A stretch of 64,000 nt of DNA from Escherichia phage NiC89. Location of the stretch: sequence record LC620505.1; one strand, written 5' to 3'. Position 1 is the stretch's first letter. Each line of letters starts with the position of its first letter. The position numbers were made by a program, and so were the translations under genes. This document shows positions 2,732 through 55,201 of this stretch, piece after piece. A model generated the notes under the pieces. That model did not search any database. It was not told the origin of the DNA and worked only from the letters and a program-made list of their open reading frames with translations.

Positions 2732-2761
2732 TTTGAATAAATATCCTTAAAAGGAGGGTCT

Positions 2762-3418
2762 ATGGCAGCACCTAGAATATCATTTTCGCCCTCTGATATT
2801 CTATTTGGTGTTCTAGATCGCTTGTTCAAAGATAACGCTACCGGGAAAGTTCTTGCTTCCCGGGTAGCTGTCGTAATTCTTTTGTTTATGATGGCGATTG
2901 TTTGGTATAGGGGAGATAGTTTCTTTGAGTACTATAAGCAATCAAAGTATGAAACATACAGTGAAATTATTGAAAAGGAAAGAAATGCACGCTTTGAATC
3001 TGTCGCCCTGGAACAACTCCAGATAGTTCACATATCATCTGAGGCAGACTTTAGTGCGGTGTATTCTTTCCGCCCTAAAAACTTAAACTATTTTGTCGAT
3101 ATTATAGCATATGAAGGAAAATTACCTTCAACAATAAGTGAAAAATCACTTGGAGGATATCCTGTTGATAAAACTATGGATGAATATGCAGTTCATTTAA
3201 ATGGACGTCATTATTATTCTGATTCAAAATTTGCTTTTTTACCAACTAAAAAGCCTACTCCCGAAATAAATTACATGTACAGTTGTCCATATTTTAATTT
3301 GGATAATATCTATGCTGGAACAATAACCATGTACTGGTATAGAAATGATCATATAAGTAATGACCGCCTTGAATCAATATGTGCTCAGGCGGCCAGAATA
3401 TTAGGAAGGGCTAAATAA
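2762..3418 (+). CDS. t: Holin T
   Basis: 218 aa, same length as T4 holin; N-terminal TM segment then large periplasmic domain; AAAAGGAGGG RBS; position after gene 38. Confidence 0.85.
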   Translation: MAAPRISFSPSDILFGVLDRLFKDNATGKVLASRVAVVILLFMMAIVWYRGDSFFEYYKQSKYETYSEIIEKERNARFESVALEQLQIVHISSEADFSAVYSFRPKNLNYFVDIIAYEGKLPSTISEKSLGGYPVDKTMDEYAVHLNGRHYYSDSKFAFLPTKKPTPEINYMYSCPYFNLDNIYAGTITMYWYRNDHISNDRLESICAQAARILGRAK

Positions 3419-3691
3419 TTATTTGTTTGTATACATTTCTAAATATCTATATACACCCTCAAAACCCTCGTTGAATTCGTCGATGAGGGTTTTCTTATCT
3501 TCTTGAGTTAATTCAGAAACAATTTTACGGAATGAATTCTGATTTAATTTTCTACCTTCATGCATTACTCCAATCTCATTCAGAAATGCAATAAAATTAG
3601 CACGATTCTCAACAATATCTTCTCTGGAAAATTTAATCAAAATAGACGCAACAGTAATAATTTCACGAACTGTATCAATATTTTTATTCAT
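3419..3691 (-). CDS. asiA: Anti-sigma70 factor AsiA
   Basis: 90 aa; sequence MNKNIDTVREIITVASILIKFSRED... matches remembered T4 AsiA; position between t and motA. Confidence 0.85.
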   Translation of the reverse strand: MNKNIDTVREIITVASILIKFSREDIVENRANFIAFLNEIGVMHEGRKLNQNSFRKIVSELTQEDKKTLIDEFNEGFEGVYRYLEMYTNK

Positions 3692-4713: not shown

Positions 4714-5174
4714 TAGTAAAGGTCCTCAGAGTAAAGTTCTTTTTCACTGCCACCACGTTCAATACGTACTTGTCCAGCGTAAGTTGCAATAATCATTGCT
4801 TCTTCACGTGTCCAATAATTACTGTATTGGTCAATAAACCCTTGGTCATCATCACAAACTTGTTGAGTAACTAATTGAGGTTTAACTACATCTAAAACTT
4901 CTGCCATATCTTTAGAATAATGACGAGCACCAGGAATAACAAGAGTTCGTCCATCTTTTAATTTAAAACGGTTGGCTGCACAGACAATTCGTCGTTGATA
5001 CTTTTGGTTTTCATCCCAATACGCAGTCTGCCAACATATTTCAGGAACTTCATCTAAAACATTTTGTTCTGTATATTCACCGCCGTAAGAAGCTAATTTA
5101 GCAGCCAGACTTTCCGGAGTCTCACGCAACAAAGCTTTATCTAACAGAGCTAAACGTTCTTTAAAAGTTTTCAT
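4713..5174 (-). CDS. Hypothetical protein (arn-motA block)
   Basis: 153-aa ORF; start/stop overlap with neighbours. Confidence 0.55.
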
Positions 5175-5500: not shown

Positions 5501-5510
5501 TATTTATTCC

Positions 5511-6146
5511 TCACAGTTCAGATGCTACAGTGATTACAGCTTCAATGTTTTCTGCCGAGCGTTTAATGTCAAGATACACATTACCGTTTTTAGCGATTTT
5601 ACATGACATTCCGATATCAGTAAATTTCTGAATATGATGTTCCATCATTTTGTATCCAAAAATTCGCATATTTCCATTGTTGTTAATTTCAAAATTACGA
5701 ATTCCGTGAGTACGTTTTTCTAAAATAGCGAGATAGTTACTACGATAAGTTTCAACCTTTTTAAGAACAAATCCATTTTCATCTAAAAGTTTTAACATGA
5801 AGTCTTTATCTTCTTCCATATCAGAAGTAATCTCACGAGCTTTACGAGTTGCTCGTTTTTTCAGTAGTTCCGGAGCATTTTCCTGTGCGTATAAAGTTGC
5901 TGCGTTTGAAATAATATCCTGAGCTTCACCAGTAATGATTAATCCATCACCAGATTTCTCCACCAGGCCTTTTTTAATCAATACCCCAATATTACTATTA
6001 ACTACTGCGTTACCTAAATCTGGATGCACCTCACGAACTTCTGCAGCTGTAATGAAATCTTTCTTAGCAATAGTAATTAAAATCGCAGCAGTTTTTTCAT
6101 TCAGAACATCGTTAGAAGCTTTGATGATGTAAGTTACTTTAGACAT
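5511..6146 (-). CDS. motA: Middle-transcription activator MotA
   Basis: 211 aa, same length as T4 MotA; sequence MSKVTYIIKASNDVLNEKTAAIL... recognised; early promoter just upstream. Confidence 0.85.
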   Translation of the reverse strand: MSKVTYIIKASNDVLNEKTAAILITIAKKDFITAAEVREVHPDLGNAVVNSNIGVLIKKGLVEKSGDGLIITGEAQDIISNAATLYAQENAPELLKKRATRKAREITSDMEEDKDFMLKLLDENGFVLKKVETYRSNYLAILEKRTHGIRNFEINNNGNMRIFGYKMMEHHIQKFTDIGMSCKIAKNGNVYLDIKRSAENIEAVITVASEL

Positions 6147-17470: not shown

Positions 17471-17740
17471 TTAATTGAACAGTGGAGCGATGCGTTTCAG
17501 AAGAATAGCAGCACCTTTAGCGAATTTTACATCATGAAAAACAGTTTCTTCTTCCGTTACAACACGAGCTTTAATGTTTTCACAATCCCAATTTTTGCGA
17601 ACAATCTTCAAAAGCTGCAGTAAATCTTTACATTCAGCAATATCGATAACACATCCACGAGAATCTTCCATTATCGCACGATAACCGTAAGCCATACCAT
17701 AATCGTTGAAAGATTGCTCGATGATAATTAAGTTTTCCAT
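17471..17740 (-). CDS. Hypothetical protein, 89 aa
   Basis: Track ORF begins MENKMENL; start taken at second Met after conserved leader. Confidence 0.5.
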   Translation of the reverse strand: MENLIIIEQSFNDYGMAYGYRAIMEDSRGCVIDIAECKDLLQLLKIVRKNWDCENIKARVVTEEETVFHDVKFAKGAAILLKRIAPLFN

Positions 17741-17764
17741 TTTATTCTCCAAGTTATTTTCTGT

Positions 17765-17807
17765 ATCAGTAGTTGATATTGATATAGTACCATAATCAAC
17801 TACTGAT
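17765..17807 (-). repeat. 13-bp perfect inverted repeat (ATCAGTAGTTGAT / ATCAACTACTGAT) flanking a TGGTACTAT -10-like core
   Basis: Seen directly; variant of the conserved early-promoter cassette but without a GTTTAC -35. Confidence 0.6.
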
Positions 17808-17837
17808 GTATATAGTTTTATGAAAAAATTTTAAACT

Positions 17838-18335
17838 TTATGCATAGCGAGCTTTGCTATAGTGTTTAATCCAACTTTCAGGAATGACTTTGTATGTTCC
17901 TAAAAATACCGCGTTGTACAGCTTAACACCGTCTTCTACCCACTGATCGGTAATGTATGCGCACATAGCACGAGTACGGTGTTTTTGAACAACCCCTTCC
18001 TCATCTTCAGTAAATTCGAATTCATAAGGAGCAACGAACTTAATAGCTTGACCGAGTTTCCACTTAAAGTCTACGCCTACATGCGAAGTATCAATCGTTT
18101 CAATTCCTTTAGCAGGAACAGCTTTCAAAAACGCAGATTCAAGAAATTTCGCACGAACATAGCCAAACTGAGGTTTAGACTTTCCATCTTTAGGAATGAT
18201 ACGCACTTTTACTTCAGAATCTTCATCTTTAACACCGTGTTTAAGCTGAATGCTTACAATTTCAACCAATTTTCCTGCTGCTTTAGAACGGGATTTATCA
18301 GATACACGAGCAATTTCACCAATATTAATAATCAT
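17838..18335 (-). CDS. Hypothetical protein, 165 aa; paralogue of 18412..18954
   Basis: Shares C-terminal motif CAYITDQWVEDGVKLYNAVFLG with neighbour (CGWVTDQWIEDGVELLNVVHAG). Confidence 0.55.
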   Translation of the reverse strand: MIINIGEIARVSDKSRSKAAGKLVEIVSIQLKHGVKDEDSEVKVRIIPKDGKSKPQFGYVRAKFLESAFLKAVPAKGIETIDTSHVGVDFKWKLGQAIKFVAPYEFEFTEDEEGVVQKHRTRAMCAYITDQWVEDGVKLYNAVFLGTYKVIPESWIKHYSKARYA

Positions 18336-26879: not shown

Positions 26880-27137
26880 TTAACCACCAATACCTGGAGT
26901 TGGCGTAACAGTCCAAAGACCTTCATTTGCAGTAATCCAATCAGCACGCTGATTTTCTTCATATACTGTTGAATATGCTGCTTTTTCTGAAGGAAATGTC
27001 TGATAATGAGCCCCAGAAATTTTGTGAACATCAGAATAAAGAGGGAAAGCTACAGAAATTTCTTTACCCTGAATTGTACCACCGTCAACTGCTTGGTCAA
27101 ATGTTTTAATATTAACATAACCGCGAGTACTAGCCAT
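26880..27137 (-). CDS. soc: Small outer capsid protein Soc
   Basis: 85 aa; sequence MASTRGYVNIKTF...ISVAFPLYSDVHKISGAHYQTFPSEKAAYSTVYEENQ matches remembered T4 Soc; late promoter upstream. Confidence 0.85.
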   Translation of the reverse strand: MASTRGYVNIKTFDQAVDGGTIQGKEISVAFPLYSDVHKISGAHYQTFPSEKAAYSTVYEENQRADWITANEGLWTVTPTPGIGG

Positions 27138-27153
27138 GTAATTCTCCTTTTAT

Positions 27154-27363
27154 TTAAATTACATGATTATTTATAATAAATTCTCGCGGAACGTTAAAAT
27201 ATCCGATTTTAGTTAATATAACAACATCACCGTTAATAATTACCGGAGAATAATCTTCTGGAGCATTAAATTTCCAATGGGCTCTAATATTATATCCATC
27301 AGAACCAAATGCTCGAGTAGCCGGTCTCCCGGCTTTTTGCCACGCATAGAAATCAAATTTCAT
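27154..27363 (-). CDS. Hypothetical protein, 69 aa (soc.1-like by position)
   Basis: ORF. Confidence 0.45.
   Translation of the reverse strand: MKFDFYAWQKAGRPATRAFGSDGYNIRAHWKFNAPEDYSPVIINGDVVILTKIGYFNVPREFIINNHVI
27168..27175 (-). promoter_or_regulatory. Late promoter TATAAATA upstream of soc
   Basis: Exact TATAAATA on - strand ~31 nt before soc ATG. Confidence 0.5.
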
Positions 27364-27554
27364 TTTGAATGCTCTATAATTAATTTTAAAGCTTCTTCAC
27401 TGACAAAAATTTCGTCAGGACCTTCTATAACTTCAACCATACGAAGTTGATTAGTTAAGAGCTCACATACGAGCTCCTTGTTATAATCTTTAAATAGCTG
27501 GTCAATACGTTTCTTATGGGCTTTCTTAAGCTGACGCTTATTTAAACGAGCCAT
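27360..27554 (-). CDS. Hypothetical protein, 64 aa (soc.2-like by position)
   Basis: ORF. Confidence 0.45.
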   Translation of the reverse strand: MARLNKRQLKKAHKKRIDQLFKDYNKELVCELLTNQLRMVEVIEGPDEIFVSEEALKLIIEHSK

Positions 27555-28072
27555 TAATAACCTCGGTCTTGACGAGCGAAGTTTTCAGCATTTTTCAGGT
27601 AATAAAGTTTAAAGATTTCTTCAGCTGACATTCCAAGAGCAATAAATTTATTCATGAAAAAATGAAATTGGTCAATAAGTTCAAATTTAATTTCAAGCTG
27701 ATCTTCGGGAGATAAATCTTGAATTTTCTTGGATTGCATTTCAGAATAACGTTTCTTCCAAGGTTTCCATACAGCAGAAGCTTCTTTTTCGCCATTACTC
27801 ATACCACCAAGAGAAGTATATAACTCGCGGGTTTCATCTGCGATATAATCGTCTTGGTTTCGCAACCAAGCAAGAACTTCTCCTGCAGTTTCAAGTGAAT
27901 CAGGATGACGATTTGTTTCTGGTTTATCATTAGCCAAACGAATCTGTAAATGCCGCTGCATATTAAGCATAACCTGCAGTGGGTCAATATTGTGCATAAT
28001 ATTCTCAGCATATGCACGATTTGCTTTATCAACACCTTCGATCAAATGAGCACATTCATTAAAGTAAGCCAT
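27554..28072 (-). CDS. 56: dCTP pyrophosphatase gp56 (MazG-like)
   Basis: Track ORF 203 aa; start taken at MAYFNE (172 aa; T4 gp56 171 aa) with AGGA RBS. Confidence 0.7.
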   Translation of the reverse strand: MAYFNECAHLIEGVDKANRAYAENIMHNIDPLQVMLNMQRHLQIRLANDKPETNRHPDSLETAGEVLAWLRNQDDYIADETRELYTSLGGMSNGEKEASAVWKPWKKRYSEMQSKKIQDLSPEDQLEIKFELIDQFHFFMNKFIALGMSAEEIFKLYYLKNAENFARQDRGY

Positions 28073-28096
28073 TATTTTTCCTTTCAATTCATGGGT

Positions 28097-28121
28097 TAGT
28101 AGATTAATTATACAATAAATA
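28097..28121 (-). promoter_or_regulatory. Middle promoter upstream of gene 56
   Basis: On - strand TTGCTTTA (MotA box), 11-bp spacer, TATAAT. Confidence 0.45.
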
Positions 28122-28143
28122 TATAAAGCAATAAGGAGGACAT

Positions 28144-28344
28144 ATGGTACAAAAATTAATGGCACTTGTTAATGCCATAAAAGGTAATAAAAAACGTATA
28201 GCTTTTACTATTTCTGCTATGGTAGGAATTTTACTCTGGAACTTTATTCTATCACCTATTGCAATTGCACATGGTATTAATATTCCAGTAGTTACTCTTG
28301 ATACATTTGTAGATTTAGCATTTGCTTTAGTTGGGTTAATTTAA
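28144..28344 (+). CDS. Candidate small membrane protein, 66 aa, convergent with gene 61
   Basis: TAAGGAGG then ATG; two hydrophobic segments; occupies the 56-61 interval where T4 carries 69/dam. Could be a chance ORF in AT-rich DNA. Confidence 0.3.
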   Translation: MVQKLMALVNAIKGNKKRIAFTISAMVGILLWNFILSPIAIAHGINIPVVTLDTFVDLAFALVGLI

Positions 28345-29369
28345 ATCTTAGCATATTTAGATAACCGCATTTTAGCCATCAACCCCTGGGCAATATTATT
28401 TTTCATATATTCCATAATTTGTTCAGGGGTTGCACCTTCCTTTCTAATCATATCATTAACATCTTTTGATTTCCAGGGAGATTTATCCCAAAACATAACC
28501 CTTTCTCCTGCATCAACTAATTTAGTCATTCGCTTGATAGTGTCAGGGTGACGAGGTTCATTATCTAAGACCCACACTCGTCTATCTTTAAATGGAACAA
28601 CTTCTAGGTCTAATTGACCACCCGTAATAGCTATACCATTTTCAATAAAAAGTGAATCTATAGGTCCTTCTAGAACATATACATCGCCATCTTTAACTCG
28701 TTCAACACCGTAAATTTTTGTTGCCTCAGGATAAGCTTTAATGGTGATATATTTTTGAGGAGCATCTTTCTTTAATGCACGTCCTTGAAAAGACTCAGCC
28801 TTTCCGTTAGCATTATAAATTGGAATAACAAGACGAGGCTCAGGTATTTCCTTTTTATATGTTCCCGGTACTATGCTATTAACCAATTTAGGCCATTCGG
28901 TTGTAAACCAAAGATATTTCCATTTATCCTTTGGAATACAACGAGCTTTTACATATTTTATAATTGGATGGTCTTCCGCCAGTTTATCTAATCTAACACA
29001 TGACGGAAGAGATTTAATTATTTTCTTCTCAGGTTGTTTAGGAAGTTCTTTAGGTTTTTCTACTGGACGACTTTTACCTTTTTCTTTTCTTATTTCAAAG
29101 ATATACTCACGATATAAATCAGGTTCAAACTCCTTTAAATATATTCCTATTGGTGCATGATAGTTACAGTTATAACAGTGAATATTTCCTTCATTATTAT
29201 CACCATAATACCATCCACGAGCTTTATTCTGGTCGGTTTTTGAATCTCCACAAACAGGGCATCTAAACCGCAATTTAAAAGTTGAACTATTATTTACTTG
29301 TGTGAATTTAGGTAAATGAGCTAATGCACGGTATGCAAACTCATTATCAATCCAAGGTATTGATGACAT
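28341..29369 (-). CDS. 61: DNA primase gp61
   Basis: 342 aa, same length as T4 gp61; N-terminal zinc ribbon CPVCGDS...CYNC. Confidence 0.9.
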   Translation of the reverse strand: MSSIPWIDNEFAYRALAHLPKFTQVNNSSTFKLRFRCPVCGDSKTDQNKARGWYYGDNNEGNIHCYNCNYHAPIGIYLKEFEPDLYREYIFEIRKEKGKSRPVEKPKELPKQPEKKIIKSLPSCVRLDKLAEDHPIIKYVKARCIPKDKWKYLWFTTEWPKLVNSIVPGTYKKEIPEPRLVIPIYNANGKAESFQGRALKKDAPQKYITIKAYPEATKIYGVERVKDGDVYVLEGPIDSLFIENGIAITGGQLDLEVVPFKDRRVWVLDNEPRHPDTIKRMTKLVDAGERVMFWDKSPWKSKDVNDMIRKEGATPEQIMEYMKNNIAQGLMAKMRLSKYAKI

Positions 29370-29371
29370 TT

Positions 29372-29536
29372 TTACTCTTCTTTTTCTTTAGATTCCTCTT
29401 TTTTCTTTTTAGGAATCTGTTCAGGACCTTTATTTACTACAGCGCCTGATGTTGTTCCAGTAGAGATATTTTCAGGACTACCACCTGAATCTCCAGCAAC
29501 CATATCTTCTTTGATAAATTCTTTATATGTTTTCAT
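29372..29536 (-). CDS. Hypothetical protein, 54 aa, Lys/Glu-rich tail (not in ORF track)
   Basis: Hand-translated MKTYKEFIKEDMVAGDSGGSPENISTGTTSGAVVNKGPEQIPKKKKEESKEKEE. Confidence 0.4.
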   Translation of the reverse strand: MKTYKEFIKEDMVAGDSGGSPENISTGTTSGAVVNKGPEQIPKKKKEESKEKEE

Positions 29537-29580
29537 ATTAACCTCTATTCATAAAAGCATTAAAAATTTGGTCATCAATC
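29535..29580 (-). repeat. Direct repeat copy A (~46 bp) spanning the 3' end of the 118-aa gene
   Basis: 43/46 identical to 29891-29936. Confidence 0.7.
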
Positions 29581-29894
29581 GATGGAATAGCAACTTTTTC
29601 TGCATCATTTAGCAAATCATTAATTTCATCAGATAGCATAACACATGTATCTTTATTTCCTGTAATTGTTACTGCGCAATTACGAACATTTTCTTTATTA
29701 AATTTTAGGTTAATATTTTCGTAATGAAAATCCTTTAATGCTGAATATATTTTTAAAATAAAATTGTCTTTTACTACAATAAACCCAACCTCACTATTAA
29801 AACGTGGCTCATGGAAACTGTAATAAACCTTTTCATCTATAAAATCGTATGAAATTTTTTCCATTTTTAAATATGAAAATTCAGAACTATACAT
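29538..29894 (-). CDS. Hypothetical protein, 118 aa; single-domain paralogue of the 213-aa neighbour
   Basis: Shares FIVVKDN core and identical C-terminal SIDDQIFNAFMN(R/K)G with 29896..30537. Confidence 0.6.
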   Translation of the reverse strand: MYSSEFSYLKMEKISYDFIDEKVYYSFHEPRFNSEVGFIVVKDNFILKIYSALKDFHYENINLKFNKENVRNCAVTITGNKDTCVMLSDEINDLLNDAEKVAIPSIDDQIFNAFMNRG

Positions 29895-29936
29895 ATTAAC
29901 CTTTATTCATAAAAGCATTAAAAATTTGATCGTCAA
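29891..29936 (-). repeat. Direct repeat copy B (~46 bp) spanning the 3' end of the 213-aa gene
   Basis: 43/46 identical to 29535-29580. Confidence 0.7.
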
Positions 29937-30537
29937 TAGAAACTTTTACTTTAGGCTGTTCTTCAAACGGTAATTCATATCCACATATTACAATTTTGTG
30001 ATCGATACCAAAATACACAGAAGCAATATGATTAATATTATTTTCAGTGAAATCTAAATCAACATCAATATCTTTTTGACCACAGCCCAAAGGATAAATA
30101 ATGCGAGTAATTCGATTATCTTTAACAAATATTCCACCGACATACTCTGTGCTGCGTTTAAAGTCTACACGCCGACGAAATGAAAAATATTCAGGCTCTC
30201 TATGAGCTCGGCTCATAGGACACAACGAGTAACTAGAATAAGAGATGTCAAATCCTACGCCTTCAATATGAGCCAACGTGTCATGATTAAACCAATTATA
30301 ATCGTACGCCAAGTCCATTAGATTATAATATGTAAAAGGCACCGGATTAACATCATATGTTGTACCTTTAAAATCTGCCCAGGCAACGATTTCATTATCT
30401 TTAACAATTACAAAAATTGTGCCAATAAGATATCCACGGTTATTTTCATCAGGCGTTATATTATAACATTGTGCATCAGGAAATTTACCGTATTTAAACG
30501 GTGGATTTTTGTGCATATAATAAATCATATTATTCAC
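29896..30537 (-). CDS. Hypothetical protein, 213 aa, two tandem KDN-motif domains (61.2-like by position)
   Basis: Internal duplication: IFVIVKDNEIV and GGIFVKDNRITRIIY. Confidence 0.6.
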   Translation of the reverse strand: MNNMIYYMHKNPPFKYGKFPDAQCYNITPDENNRGYLIGTIFVIVKDNEIVAWADFKGTTYDVNPVPFTYYNLMDLAYDYNWFNHDTLAHIEGVGFDISYSSYSLCPMSRAHREPEYFSFRRRVDFKRSTEYVGGIFVKDNRITRIIYPLGCGQKDIDVDLDFTENNINHIASVYFGIDHKIVICGYELPFEEQPKVKVSIDDQIFNAFMNKG

Positions 30538-48804: not shown

Positions 48805-49023
48805 TTATTTCTCTAATATAAAATAAAAATCATCATCTGTTAAATGATACCGATAGTTTAATTCTACACCATTAGATTTAAAAGCGGTATCATACGGATT
48901 TTCTGGATCAATATCAATGTCAAGAGCTAAAACTTCCCTGAGATACATTTTAAGTAAATAGGGAATAGCTTCAACTTCAGGTATTTCTTCCAAGAATCCG
49001 GAGAGGTTAATCGTTAGCCTCAT
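48805..49023 (-). CDS. Hypothetical protein, 72 aa
   Basis: ORF. Confidence 0.45.
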
Positions 49024-49564
49024 ATAAAAAATCCAAACTAGGAGAATCGTCTACAACACTTTTCTTTTCAGCCCCCGGTGTTCTATAGGTTGATTCTTCG
49101 TAATGCGTCATTTTATCATAGATGTCTTGAATAAAAGTTTCATCTACTAACGCAACCATATCGTCGTCACGGCTGTCATAGACATTGTGAACGAAATAAC
49201 TATATTTCTTTGCAACTTCCTTACGTTCTTTTTTAATACGCTGGACGAATGCATTAAAACAAGCTTGAGTTATATATGCATGTGGGTTTTTATATTTCGT
49301 TTCATCAAAATTGTGAAGCCCCTTAATAGAAGCTTCTATACCATCTGCAATCATTTCTTGTTTCCAAGACTGGGTGTATCCTGAAAAGTTGAAACGTTTA
49401 GATAAGCCTTCTGCAATAAGCATAATGGCTAATCCGATAGTATCATTCTGACGAACTACTTTATTTGGGTCTTTATTATTTGCTAATTCTGTTTTCCAAT
49501 CAATAATAGCTTGTAAAAGCTCTTTATTGTTTACGTAATTATATTTAGGCTTAGTTTCTGACAT
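49007..49564 (-). CDS. 55: Late sigma factor gp55
   Basis: Track ORF 187 aa; Met-3 start gives 185 aa as in T4. Confidence 0.8.
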
Positions 49565-49642
49565 TTTCACCTCTTAGCTCAATTCATAGATCTATTATAT
49601 CATAATATTTGAAGATCTATCTTAAAGCATAGAGGATATCAG

Positions 49643-51790: not shown

Positions 51791-52073
51791 GAGAAATAAT
51801 TCCTTGGTAAGCCCAATAAGGAGGATTAACAGAATCCTCACCAGAGTTTTCTTCAGGAAAATAAACCTGGATAACGAAGCCGGATTCATCAAAGGTGAAA
51901 TAAGTAGTAGGCAGTTCACCTAACAAATCGGCACGAGCGTTGATTTCTTCGAGGTCTTGTTCACGTCCAGCCCAGAAGCTTGGGTTCAGACTACATTCAT
52001 AGAAATAATAGTCATTACCGAACATATCAAAACCATTCCAACTCTCTACTACATACCGCTCAAAACTAATCAT
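51762..52073 (-). CDS. Hypothetical protein, 103 aa
   Basis: ORF whose stop overlaps the glutaredoxin-like frame. Confidence 0.45.
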   Translation of the reverse strand: MISFERYVVESWNGFDMFGNDYYFYECSLNPSFWAGREQDLEEINARADLLGELPTTYFTFDESGFVIQVYFPEENSGEDSVNPPYWAYQGIISRGTKLELKE

Positions 52074-52291: not shown

Positions 52292-52405
52292 ATTTACCCT
52301 TAATTAATTAACCAAGCATTGATAAGCACTAAACTATATTGCGAATAAAATTCTGGACCAAAATGAAAAATCATATCATTTATAGTATCCATAATGTAAT
52401 TCAAT

Positions 52406-52876
52406 TTAATCATGTGTCCACACCCCATCGGTATTTGACCAAAGTCGCTGATTATCTGATCCTCGCCACAGCTTTTTGGTCGGAAGATTTTTCTCATACT
52501 TCCCATCAATAATAACATCAACATATTTAAGCATTTCTAGTTGTTTAATATCTTCAAACTTATATCCTGTCCACAACCAAATGCTTTTATTGGGATAAAG
52601 ATTTTTAATAGTTTGAACCACAGAGTGAATCACGTCTCTGTTATCAGGATAAAGAGGGTCACCCCCGGTTATAGTTAATCCTTCTATATAATCATTATTC
52701 AAACATTCAATCAATTGTTCTAGTGTTTCACCAGTGAATGGAATACCATTTCTAGCATTCCATGTTGATTTATTATAACACCCTTCGCATTTATGCAAAC
52801 AACCTGTAACGAAAAGAACGACCCTGCATCCAGGGCCATTCACAAAATCGCAAGGATAAAATCTATCATAATTCAT
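52406..52876 (-). CDS. nrdG: Anaerobic ribonucleotide reductase activating protein NrdG (radical SAM)
   Basis: 156 aa; CxxxCxxC cluster (CLHKCEGC). Confidence 0.85.
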   Translation of the reverse strand: MNYDRFYPCDFVNGPGCRVVLFVTGCLHKCEGCYNKSTWNARNGIPFTGETLEQLIECLNNDYIEGLTITGGDPLYPDNRDVIHSVVQTIKNLYPNKSIWLWTGYKFEDIKQLEMLKYVDVIIDGKYEKNLPTKKLWRGSDNQRLWSNTDGVWTHD

Positions 52877-55160: not shown

Positions 55161-55201
55161 AATAAACCCTTACCTTAAATAGATAAGGGTATTTATTATT
55201 T

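Follow-up and report, generated by a model that had tools for sequence, protein, structure and literature searches.

What lies between genes 56 and 61 of a T4-like phage when the interval is too short to hold dam? In T4 the gene for Dam, a GATC N6-adenine methyltransferase, is found at this junction, whereas in Escherichia phage NiC89 (LC620505.1) it is absent and the two genes are separated by 268 bp (28073-28340). An earlier note on this DNA read the interval, which it put at about 270 bp, as the site of a loss. According to that note dam and gene 69 had disappeared, a small convergent membrane ORF had come to occupy their place, and the DNA modification state and the restriction systems that the phage can evade would have changed with them. 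We analyzed the 64,000-nucleotide stretch around the interval (hereafter the window) together with the corresponding junctions of related phages. The window is a segment of a Tequatrovirus (T4-like) genome and aligns with vB_EcoM_G4507 (NC_054919; positions 157,136-168,828, then 1-52,575) at ~97% identity. The features discussed below are listed in Table 1.

Table 1. Positions in the window of features at the gene 56-gene 61 junction and of genes and sites related to them
Feature	Position	Strand	Evidence or remark
T holin	2762-3418		PF11031, E = 5e-117
AsiA	3419-3691	-	PF09010
MotA	5511-6146	-	PF09114 and PF09158
WATAAATA site of soc	27168-27175	-	18-30 nt 5' of ATG
Gene 56 (dCTPase/dUTPase)	27554-28072	-	ORF listing; gene 56/dCTP pyrophosphatase in matching records; weak Pfam dUTPase_2 match
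MotA-dependent middle promoter of gene 56 (T4 P(M)16.53, oriA primer promoter)	28107-28132	-	sequence and alignment with X01416
-10 element TATAAT of this promoter	28107-28112	-	5' of gene 56
MotA box ATTGCTT of this promoter	28126-28132	-	13-nt spacer to the -10 element
Predicted core of a gp55-type late promoter, AATAAATA	28114-28121	+	A(-13) variant of TATAAATA; start predicted near 28127
Shine-Dalgarno sequence TAAGGAGG of the 66-aa ORF	28132-28139	+	read from the sequence; 4 nt 5' of ATG
dam.1 orthologue, 66-codon ORF	28144-28344	+	convergent with gene 61; phrog_2024 match
Hairpin and T-run	28159-28178	-	inside the 5' end of the ORF; terminator-like scan match
Gene 61 (DNA primase)	28341-29369	-	ORF listing; primase in matching records; weak Pfam DNAG_N match
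Stable hairpin	28380-28432	+	36-88 nt past the stop of the ORF, within the 3' end of gene 61
gp55	49007-49570	-	phrog_234, late sigma transcription factor, E = 2.9e-69
WATAAATA site of gene 49	55190-55197	-	18-30 nt 5' of ATG

All that had been described in the sequence of the window itself was found as described. The spacing agrees with the coordinates, and the opposite strand carries a 66-aa ORF with a Shine-Dalgarno sequence, two hydrophobic segments and a stop codon (TAA, 28342-44) that shares 2 nt with that of gene 61 (28341-43), the two genes overlapping by 4 nt in all. The arrangement as a whole was also found elsewhere. In T6 the promoter region is 98% identical to that of the window and the gene order (soc, two small ORFs, 56, dam.1, 61) is shared. 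AR1 and RB69 likewise have gene 56, a small ORF and gene 61 without dam, although the pair of small soc.1/soc.2-type ORFs found between soc and 56 in T6 and in the window is missing from them. Matches to the interval were found in 506 records, and in 334 of these the window's junction is covered over at least 80% of its length. The junction is an ordinary, already catalogued T6-type arrangement rather than an unusual one, and its description as a notable loss was overstated. Nearby genes on the - strand include AdfA/gp61.2 (PF23813), spackle and dmd, and the neighborhood of the ORF is rich in host-interaction functions.

The convergent ORF did not take the place of dam. T4 itself carries it, at 4739-4939 of the T4 locus that we used for comparison (L002), with 63 of 66 residues identical (95%); the three substitutions are conservative, and the two copies do not differ in any essential way. 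The T4 copy lies in the 309-bp gap between dam and gene 61, for which NC_000866 and AF158101 give no annotation; this copy has AAAGGAGG upstream and overlaps the gene 61 stop as in the window. The ORF is named dam.1 in T4T (HM137666, T4Tp032) and Dam.1 in T6 (MH550421), and RB69ORF029w in RB69. The RB69 copy has 55% amino acid identity to the window ORF and shares its position, orientation, Shine-Dalgarno sequence and upstream NATAAATA. T4, T4T, T2 and G8 have the ORF and dam side by side, which refutes the claim that dam was replaced by a new ORF. The statement that the T4 interval holds gene 69 and dam stands for dam alone, since "gene 69" is an obsolete frame of 1984 that has become genes 56 and segF and is found between dam and soc rather than between 56 and 61; what accompanies dam in T4 is the 66-aa ORF.

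The ORF is also conserved across the Tevenvirinae. Positional orthologues, on the + strand, convergent with gene 61 and upstream of 56, occur in at least four Tevenvirinae genera (in T4, RB69, VR20, M719, JS09 and Boboto), and the position beside gene 61 is shared by three metagenomic contigs (L020-L022). The window ORF matches phrog_2024 (PHROG 2024, function unknown) over its full length (E = 1.4e-31). An HMM scan of 1.8 billion representative proteins returned only 15 relatives, all of them small (57-70 aa), and the two metagenomic relatives that could be placed are convergent with a gene for a ~340-aa primase and lie near spackle and DnaB-type helicase genes. Eight columns are invariant in the 15-sequence alignment (M1, K13, W32, N33, P38, G44, V56 and L65); P48 and G64 are nearly so, and an acidic residue follows L52 (L52-D53 in the window). 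The window protein has the family signature, W-N-[FYL]-x3-P ... G-x2-[LIV]-P ... [LI]-[DE] after a basic N-terminus, which further relatives (P0083-P0092) also show. The alignment of the members of 65-66 aa contains one single-codon indel only, and all homologues have a GGAGG or GGAG element upstream of the ATG.

Could such conservation arise without expression of the ORF? Constraints on the - strand, from a 3' untranslated region or terminator of gene 61, the leader of dam or 56, or an element of oriA, could preserve the same DNA. In keeping with this possibility, a - strand hairpin followed by a T-run lies within the 5' end of the ORF and may terminate or attenuate transcription after gene 61, early and middle transcripts that read through must cross the ORF region, and the T6 record has an altered start codon. 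However, the hairpin and T-run, although present in T4, are not conserved outside Tequatrovirus, being missing from RB69, VR20 and Boboto, and an Rfam scan of 27000-29500 gave matches at chance level only (E > 0.6). The length of the ORF, its start, its Shine-Dalgarno sequence and its stop are kept down to ~27% identity. Substitutions are concentrated at sites that are synonymous in the frame of the ORF, as counted by the Nei-Gojobori method in three independent within-genus pairs. Synonymous and nonsynonymous changes numbered 12 and 2 between RB69 and JS09 (dN/dS 0.05, Fisher p = 1.5e-6), 10 and 5 between the window and G8 (dN/dS 0.135, p = 3e-4), and 21 and 13 between VR20 and TH15 (dN/dS 0.16, p = 1.8e-6). 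Over the comparisons of the ORF as a whole, dN/dS ranged from 0.05 to 0.45. This conservation is not borrowed from the gene on the opposite strand, because the overlap with gene 61 is so short. We consider it very unlikely that the ORF is unexpressed and, judged by these comparisons, it is a real protein-coding gene under purifying selection.

The T6 record has ATT in place of the ATG start codon and a few records have frameshifted or truncated copies, and dam.1 may therefore be dispensable. Our search of the literature on dam.1 and RB69ORF029w, and on transcription starts and unannotated ORFs of T4, found no report of a transcript, ribosome footprint or peptide of this ORF for any phage.

The absence of dam is plain at the junction and in the window as a whole. 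With T4 Dam as the query, the best tblastn match in the window was at chance level (E = 0.68), compared with 5e-176 for the T4 locus as a control. No homologue of T4 Dam, in which SAM-binding motif I and DPPY motif IV would be expected, was thus found in the interval or the window, and the few [DNS]PP[YFW] motifs in the window are within AdfA and small non-methyltransferase proteins. The earlier statement on the lack of methyltransferase ORFs in the window was borne out. Two candidates were considered and rejected: an NPPY motif at 51827 belongs to a protein of 103 aa with no Pfam match, and the match to the DPPY region of Dam at 52405-52488, which is the one with E = 0.68 and might have been the remnant of a methyltransferase gene, contains stops and falls in no sizeable open frame. 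dam is very probably absent from the whole genome of this phage, because G4507, the nearest complete genome, has neither an annotated methyltransferase (NC_054919) nor a tblastn match to T4 Dam beyond a best E of 1.6.

The distribution of dam among related phages argues against a loss. Dam with at least 90% identity to that of T4 was found in 182 phage records and the Tequatrovirus-type 66-aa ORF, at 80% identity or more, in ~502, counts that are approximate because some phages are entered in both RefSeq and GenBank and a few records are partial; about one third of the Tequatrovirus-type records carry dam and about two thirds (~64%) do not. The compact dam-less junction is found in T6, AR1, RB69 (Mosigvirus), VR20 and M719 (Gaprivervirus or similar), JS09 and Klebsiella phage Boboto (Jiaodavirus). 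Homologues of Dam in other T4-like genera are at other map positions. In the enzymology of the 1960s a DNA methylase was reportedly induced by T2 and T4 and not by T6.

Comparison of these junctions separates a constant unit from a varying one. The constant unit is the ORF, tail-to-tail with gene 61, and the varying part is the space from the 5' end of the ORF to gene 56. This slot is empty in the window, T6, AR1, RB69, VR20 and Boboto. It holds dam in T4 and G8, an HNH endonuclease gene in WL-3, and three small ORFs in the distant metagenomic T4-like contig L020. Of the T2, T6 and RB phages that had been suggested for comparison, T6 and RB69 are dam-less, and in T2 a 181-aa ORF and dam lie beside the 66-aa ORF. 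dam looks like an accessory cassette that was inserted in this variable slot. A gain of dam at the junction within part of Tequatrovirus is more likely than a loss in this phage, as far as sequence comparison can tell, because the outgroup genera have the compact form. A search of the interval for repeats returned short chance matches only, with no direct repeats at the endpoints of a clean deletion of dam. Simple excision does not describe how the T6-type allele differs from the T4-type one, since the differences lie between the ATAAATA core and the Shine-Dalgarno sequence.

Thus, the direction implied by "loss of Dam" was probably wrong. That dam (and "69") was lost here and replaced by a novel convergent membrane ORF, with an unusual change in modification or anti-restriction, is consistent with the presence of dam at the T4 junction and its absence from the window and from the nearest complete genome, yet the dam-less junction is the majority state and that of the outgroup genera and classical T6, nothing has been replaced where the ORF adjoins dam, and gene 69 belongs to the other side of 56. 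We regard such a replacement as extremely improbable. The absence of dam also matters little, as it is a common state among T4-like coliphages, T6 included, and the DNA is still hypermodified: the window carries the gene 42 hydroxymethylase region, an alpha-glucosyltransferase and a T2/T6-type beta-glucosyl-HMC-alpha-glucosyltransferase, as identified by homology with G4507.

Two promoters appear to share the short interval. The first, the MotA-box middle promoter of gene 56, had been noted before and was confirmed both in the sequence and by alignment. MotA-dependent promoters have the box (a/t)(a/t)TGCTT(t/c)A near -30 and a sigma-70 -10 element without a -35 element, and the window has ATTGCTTTA, a spacer and TATAAT in this arrangement. 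In architecture the region aligns base for base with a promoter of T4 that X01416, a record of 1984, annotates as "mot-box of promoter P(M) 16.53" with its -10 element. The same architecture is found in VR20, in Boboto and in RB69, where it is listed as Pm:16038 (Nolan et al. 2006, supplement). Both MotA and AsiA are encoded within the window.

The second promoter is predicted on the + strand. According to Geiduschek and Kassavetis (2010, PMC2988020), every early and middle transcript of T4 is counterclockwise, and only late transcription uses both directions. In the window the counterclockwise direction is that of the - strand and the dam.1 ORF is on the + strand; in G4507 the ORF is the sole + strand CDS of the first ~75 kb, the early/middle block. 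A scan found no sigma-70-like promoter on the + strand upstream of the ORF. The ORF does have, 22 nt before its ATG, the sequence AATAAATA, which matches at 7 of 8 positions the late promoter core TATAAATA, a motif that occupies -13 to -6 in promoters lacking a -35 element. The A(-13) variant that it represents occurs at 9 of 50 listed T4 late sites, and how strong such variants are in vivo, compared with each other, is not known (Geiduschek and Kassavetis 2010, PMC2988020). gp55 is encoded within the window.

Motifs of this kind are strongly depleted in the region. WATAAATA occurs at 5 sites in the 64-kb window (both strands), compared with 25.2 +/- 4.7 in shuffled sequences. Three of the four sites other than that of dam.1 each precede a start codon by 18-30 nt, namely that of holin t, of soc or of gene 49, and all three of these genes are transcribed late in T4. 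On the + strand of the first 75 kb of G4507 there are 5 ATAAATA sites where ~27 are expected, one of them that of dam.1. The soc gene and gene 49 are close parallels, as T4 late genes that lie in early regions as small units with the motif and a strong Shine-Dalgarno sequence. They differ from dam.1 in being on the - strand like their neighbors and in that late expression of dam.1 is predicted.

The motif has been conserved together with the ORF. NATAAATA is found 12-22 nt upstream of the ATG in T4, T2, T6, RB69, JS09, VR20, M719, TH15, Boboto and L020, while the bases around it have diverged between lineages. The first position of the promoter core is A, G or C in all homologues except the most distant, L021 and L022, in which it is T and the core is a perfect TATAAATA. 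The position of NATAAATA is fixed relative to the ORF and not relative to the gene 56 promoter: in the window it falls inside the spacer of the MotA promoter, in VR20 it overlaps the MotA box, in RB69 it is found beyond that box, and in T4 the distance is ~0.9 kb. With no dam cassette to keep the two promoters apart, the window differs from T4 in having the late-promoter core within the spacer of the promoter of gene 56. Nolan et al. (2006) found late promoters of RB69 only 5' to orthologues of T4 late genes, and their HMM scan called none 5' of RB69ORF029w. dam.1 is most likely a gp55-dependent late gene, as predicted from sequence, because the conserved NATAAATA precedes the ORF in every lineage and the motif is strongly depleted elsewhere.

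We propose that the 268-bp interval, a compact, dam-less T6-type allele of the variable slot, holds two overlapping, back-to-back promoters. The predicted late core is on the + strand, between the MotA box and the -10 element of the middle promoter, and the late transcript would most likely start near 28127, with a 17-nt leader that carries TAAGGAGG, and would be translated into the 66-aa product. In T4, T2 and about one third of Tequatrovirus records, the dam cassette separates these two promoters.

The 3' end of such a transcript bears on another possibility, in which the late RNA from NATAAATA acts as antisense to gene 61 and lowers the amount of primase mRNA late in infection, with the peptide secondary. 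The convergent, stop-overlapping arrangement is kept in most lineages, and a scan of the + strand from the ORF stop into the body of gene 61 gave no canonical terminator, as would suit an antisense role. However, it is the protein sequence that is under purifying selection, and in VR20 and Boboto the ORF is separated from gene 61 by a gap that in Boboto contains a GC-rich, terminator-like hairpin. Moreover, the window has a stable hairpin shortly beyond the ORF stop (28380-28432; single-sequence fold, MFE -23.3 kcal/mol, z = -3.78). We speculate that this hairpin is a candidate 3' end or stabilizer of the late transcript. RB69 and L020 have hairpins at a similar position downstream of the ORF; a conserved RNA hairpin 3' of the ORF was considered and set aside, as the alignment had no covariation in register. 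A principally antisense role is unlikely, and a late transcript with a coding function remains our preferred reading.

The product of dam.1 is most likely a small inner-membrane protein, to judge from its sequence. Kyte-Doolittle averages over 19-residue windows exceed 1.6 at residues 23-41 (2.02) and 47-66 (1.86), and an AF2 model made with the family alignment has helices at residues 2-12, 16-42 and 52-63 (pLDDT 77). The N-terminal 18 residues include five K/R and no acidic residue, and by the positive-inside rule the N-terminus would be cytoplasmic. The transmembrane helix would span approximately residues 19-41, with the invariant W-N...P, and would be followed by a conserved G-x-x-x-P...L-[D/E] loop and then by a short C-terminal helix, acidic and hydrophobic, that would lie in the membrane or at its surface. 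The topology is uncertain because the second hydrophobic segment contains two Asp residues and a single transmembrane segment, at 21-41, is predicted for the RB69 homologue (RB69ORF029w; Nolan et al. 2006, supplement). Conservation is highest where the transmembrane helix ends and in the loop (W-N-x4-P, G-x3-P-x3-L-[D/E]), a pattern that suggests that the protein makes a specific contact and is not simply an anchor. Scans of the protein against Pfam and NCBIfam gave no match, and a search of BFVD structures returned members of its own family and noise only.

A small membrane protein that is probably made late could be a holin, a pinholin or a membrane toxin. Its size, hydrophobic segments and probable timing resemble those of class II holins, and one UniProt entry (from vB_EcoM_OE5505) and its BFVD model are named "Holin". 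However, that name appears to be automatic, and neither the domain scans nor the structural search points to a holin. The charged, hydrophilic C-terminal tail of holins is missing; the last 25 residues (42-66) have no K/R and two Asp, and end in ...LVGLI. The ORF is not part of a lysis cassette, being flanked by the dCTPase and primase genes, and the window already encodes the T holin. We find a holin or toxin function very improbable. As a weak guess, the small inner-membrane protein that we favor might have an accessory late function at the cell envelope, for example in lysis timing or in defense against superinfection or abortive infection.

Based on these results, we consider it quite probable that the junction is a T6-type allele with back-to-back middle and late promoters, that dam.1 is a late gene for an inner-membrane protein, and that dam is an accessory cassette. 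The earlier interpretation is partly supported, in its description of the interval and in the absence of dam. That the ORF exists as a hypothetical gene (dam.1, RB69ORF029w, PHROG 2024) is already known. What we add is comparative evidence that dam.1, left out of the T4 reference annotation, is a conserved and probably late gene for a membrane protein. Being absent from the T4 reference records, dam.1 is invisible to analyses that use NC_000866 or AF158101 as their gene catalogue. A bolder view, which we hold to be possible but rather doubtful, is that dam.1 is an overlooked, near-universal late gene of the Tevenvirinae with a role in the envelope (lysis timing or inhibition, superinfection exclusion or anti-Abi), or as antisense to gene 61, or both. 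If so, its omission from the reference annotation of T4 would be the reason why dam.1 has not been studied.

The space between gene 56 and the 5' end of dam.1, the small ORF convergent with gene 61, is an accessory-gene hotspot. It holds dam in T4 and is empty in the window, and its contents in three other T4-like sequences are listed in the table. Between soc and gene 56, T4 carries the homing endonuclease segF, whereas the window has two small ORFs in a 'soc.1/soc.2' arrangement of the T2/T6 type; both segF and this pair are missing from AR1 and RB69. Between 61.1 and 61.2, a 118-aa ORF is paralogous to the C-terminal half of AdfA/gp61.2; the two are 37% identical over 106 aa (E = 4e-11) and have a C-terminal SIDDQIFNAFMN[KR]G in common. 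AR1 and vB_EcoM_G4507, the nearest complete genome, also carry this paralogue, but T4 does not.

Features of the window and contents of the dam.1-gene 56 slot in related phages (positions with an L number are coordinates on that sequence)
Feature	Position	Strand	Context or content
WATAAATA	2736-2743	+	
WATAAATA	5501-5508	-	
WATAAATA	27168-27175	-	soc
WATAAATA	28114-28121	+	dam.1
WATAAATA	55190-55197	-	gene 49
Two small ORFs	27154-27554	-	between soc and gene 56; 69 aa (PF24197, DUF7422) and 64 aa
8-bp hairpin, then TAATTTTTGT	28159-28178	-	within codons 6-12 of + strand dam.1 ORF
Stable hairpin	28380-28432	+	gene 61 3' end, 36-88 nt past dam.1 stop
118-aa ORF	29538-29894	-	between 61.1 and 61.2
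AdfA/gp61.2	29896-30537		PF23813, Anti-DarT factor A
WL-3 slot	L016 1-330		HNH endonuclease
T2 slot	L024 1203-1748		181-aa hypothetical protein and dam
Distant T4-like metagenomic contig slot	L020 2192-2966		three small ORFs

The late-promoter motif WATAAATA is depleted about five-fold in the window (5 sites, compared to 25.2 +/- 4.7 in shuffles). Four of these are 18-30 nt 5' of a start codon, that of holin t, soc, gene 49 (endonuclease VII) or dam.1. The remaining site adjoins the start codon of a 109-aa ORF that lies 3' of motA, and its role there is not obvious.

One hairpin lies inside dam.1 and another beyond its stop. The first, on the - strand in the 5' end of the ORF, may terminate or attenuate transcription between gene 61 and the promoter of gene 56; T4 has a counterpart, whereas RB69, VR20 and Boboto do not. 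The second, on the + strand, is stable (-23.3 kcal/mol, z = -3.8). RB69 and the metagenomic contig have hairpins at a similar position, with no compensatory changes in register, and in Boboto a GC-rich hairpin (L012 1663-1680) occupies the 18-nt gap between dam.1 and gene 61.

In the T6 record (MH550421), ATT (L023 1601-1603) replaces the ATG start codon of dam.1, and the gene is therefore annotated from the second Met (61 aa). Possible explanations for the ATT are a weak start codon, a mutation of the laboratory strain and a sequencing error. Although dam.1 is annotated in the T4T and T6 records, the T4 ORF (17738-17938; L002 4739-4939) has no annotation in either T4 reference record, NC_000866 or AF158101. 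Thus, dam.1 would be overlooked in analyses whose gene lists are drawn from the T4 reference records.
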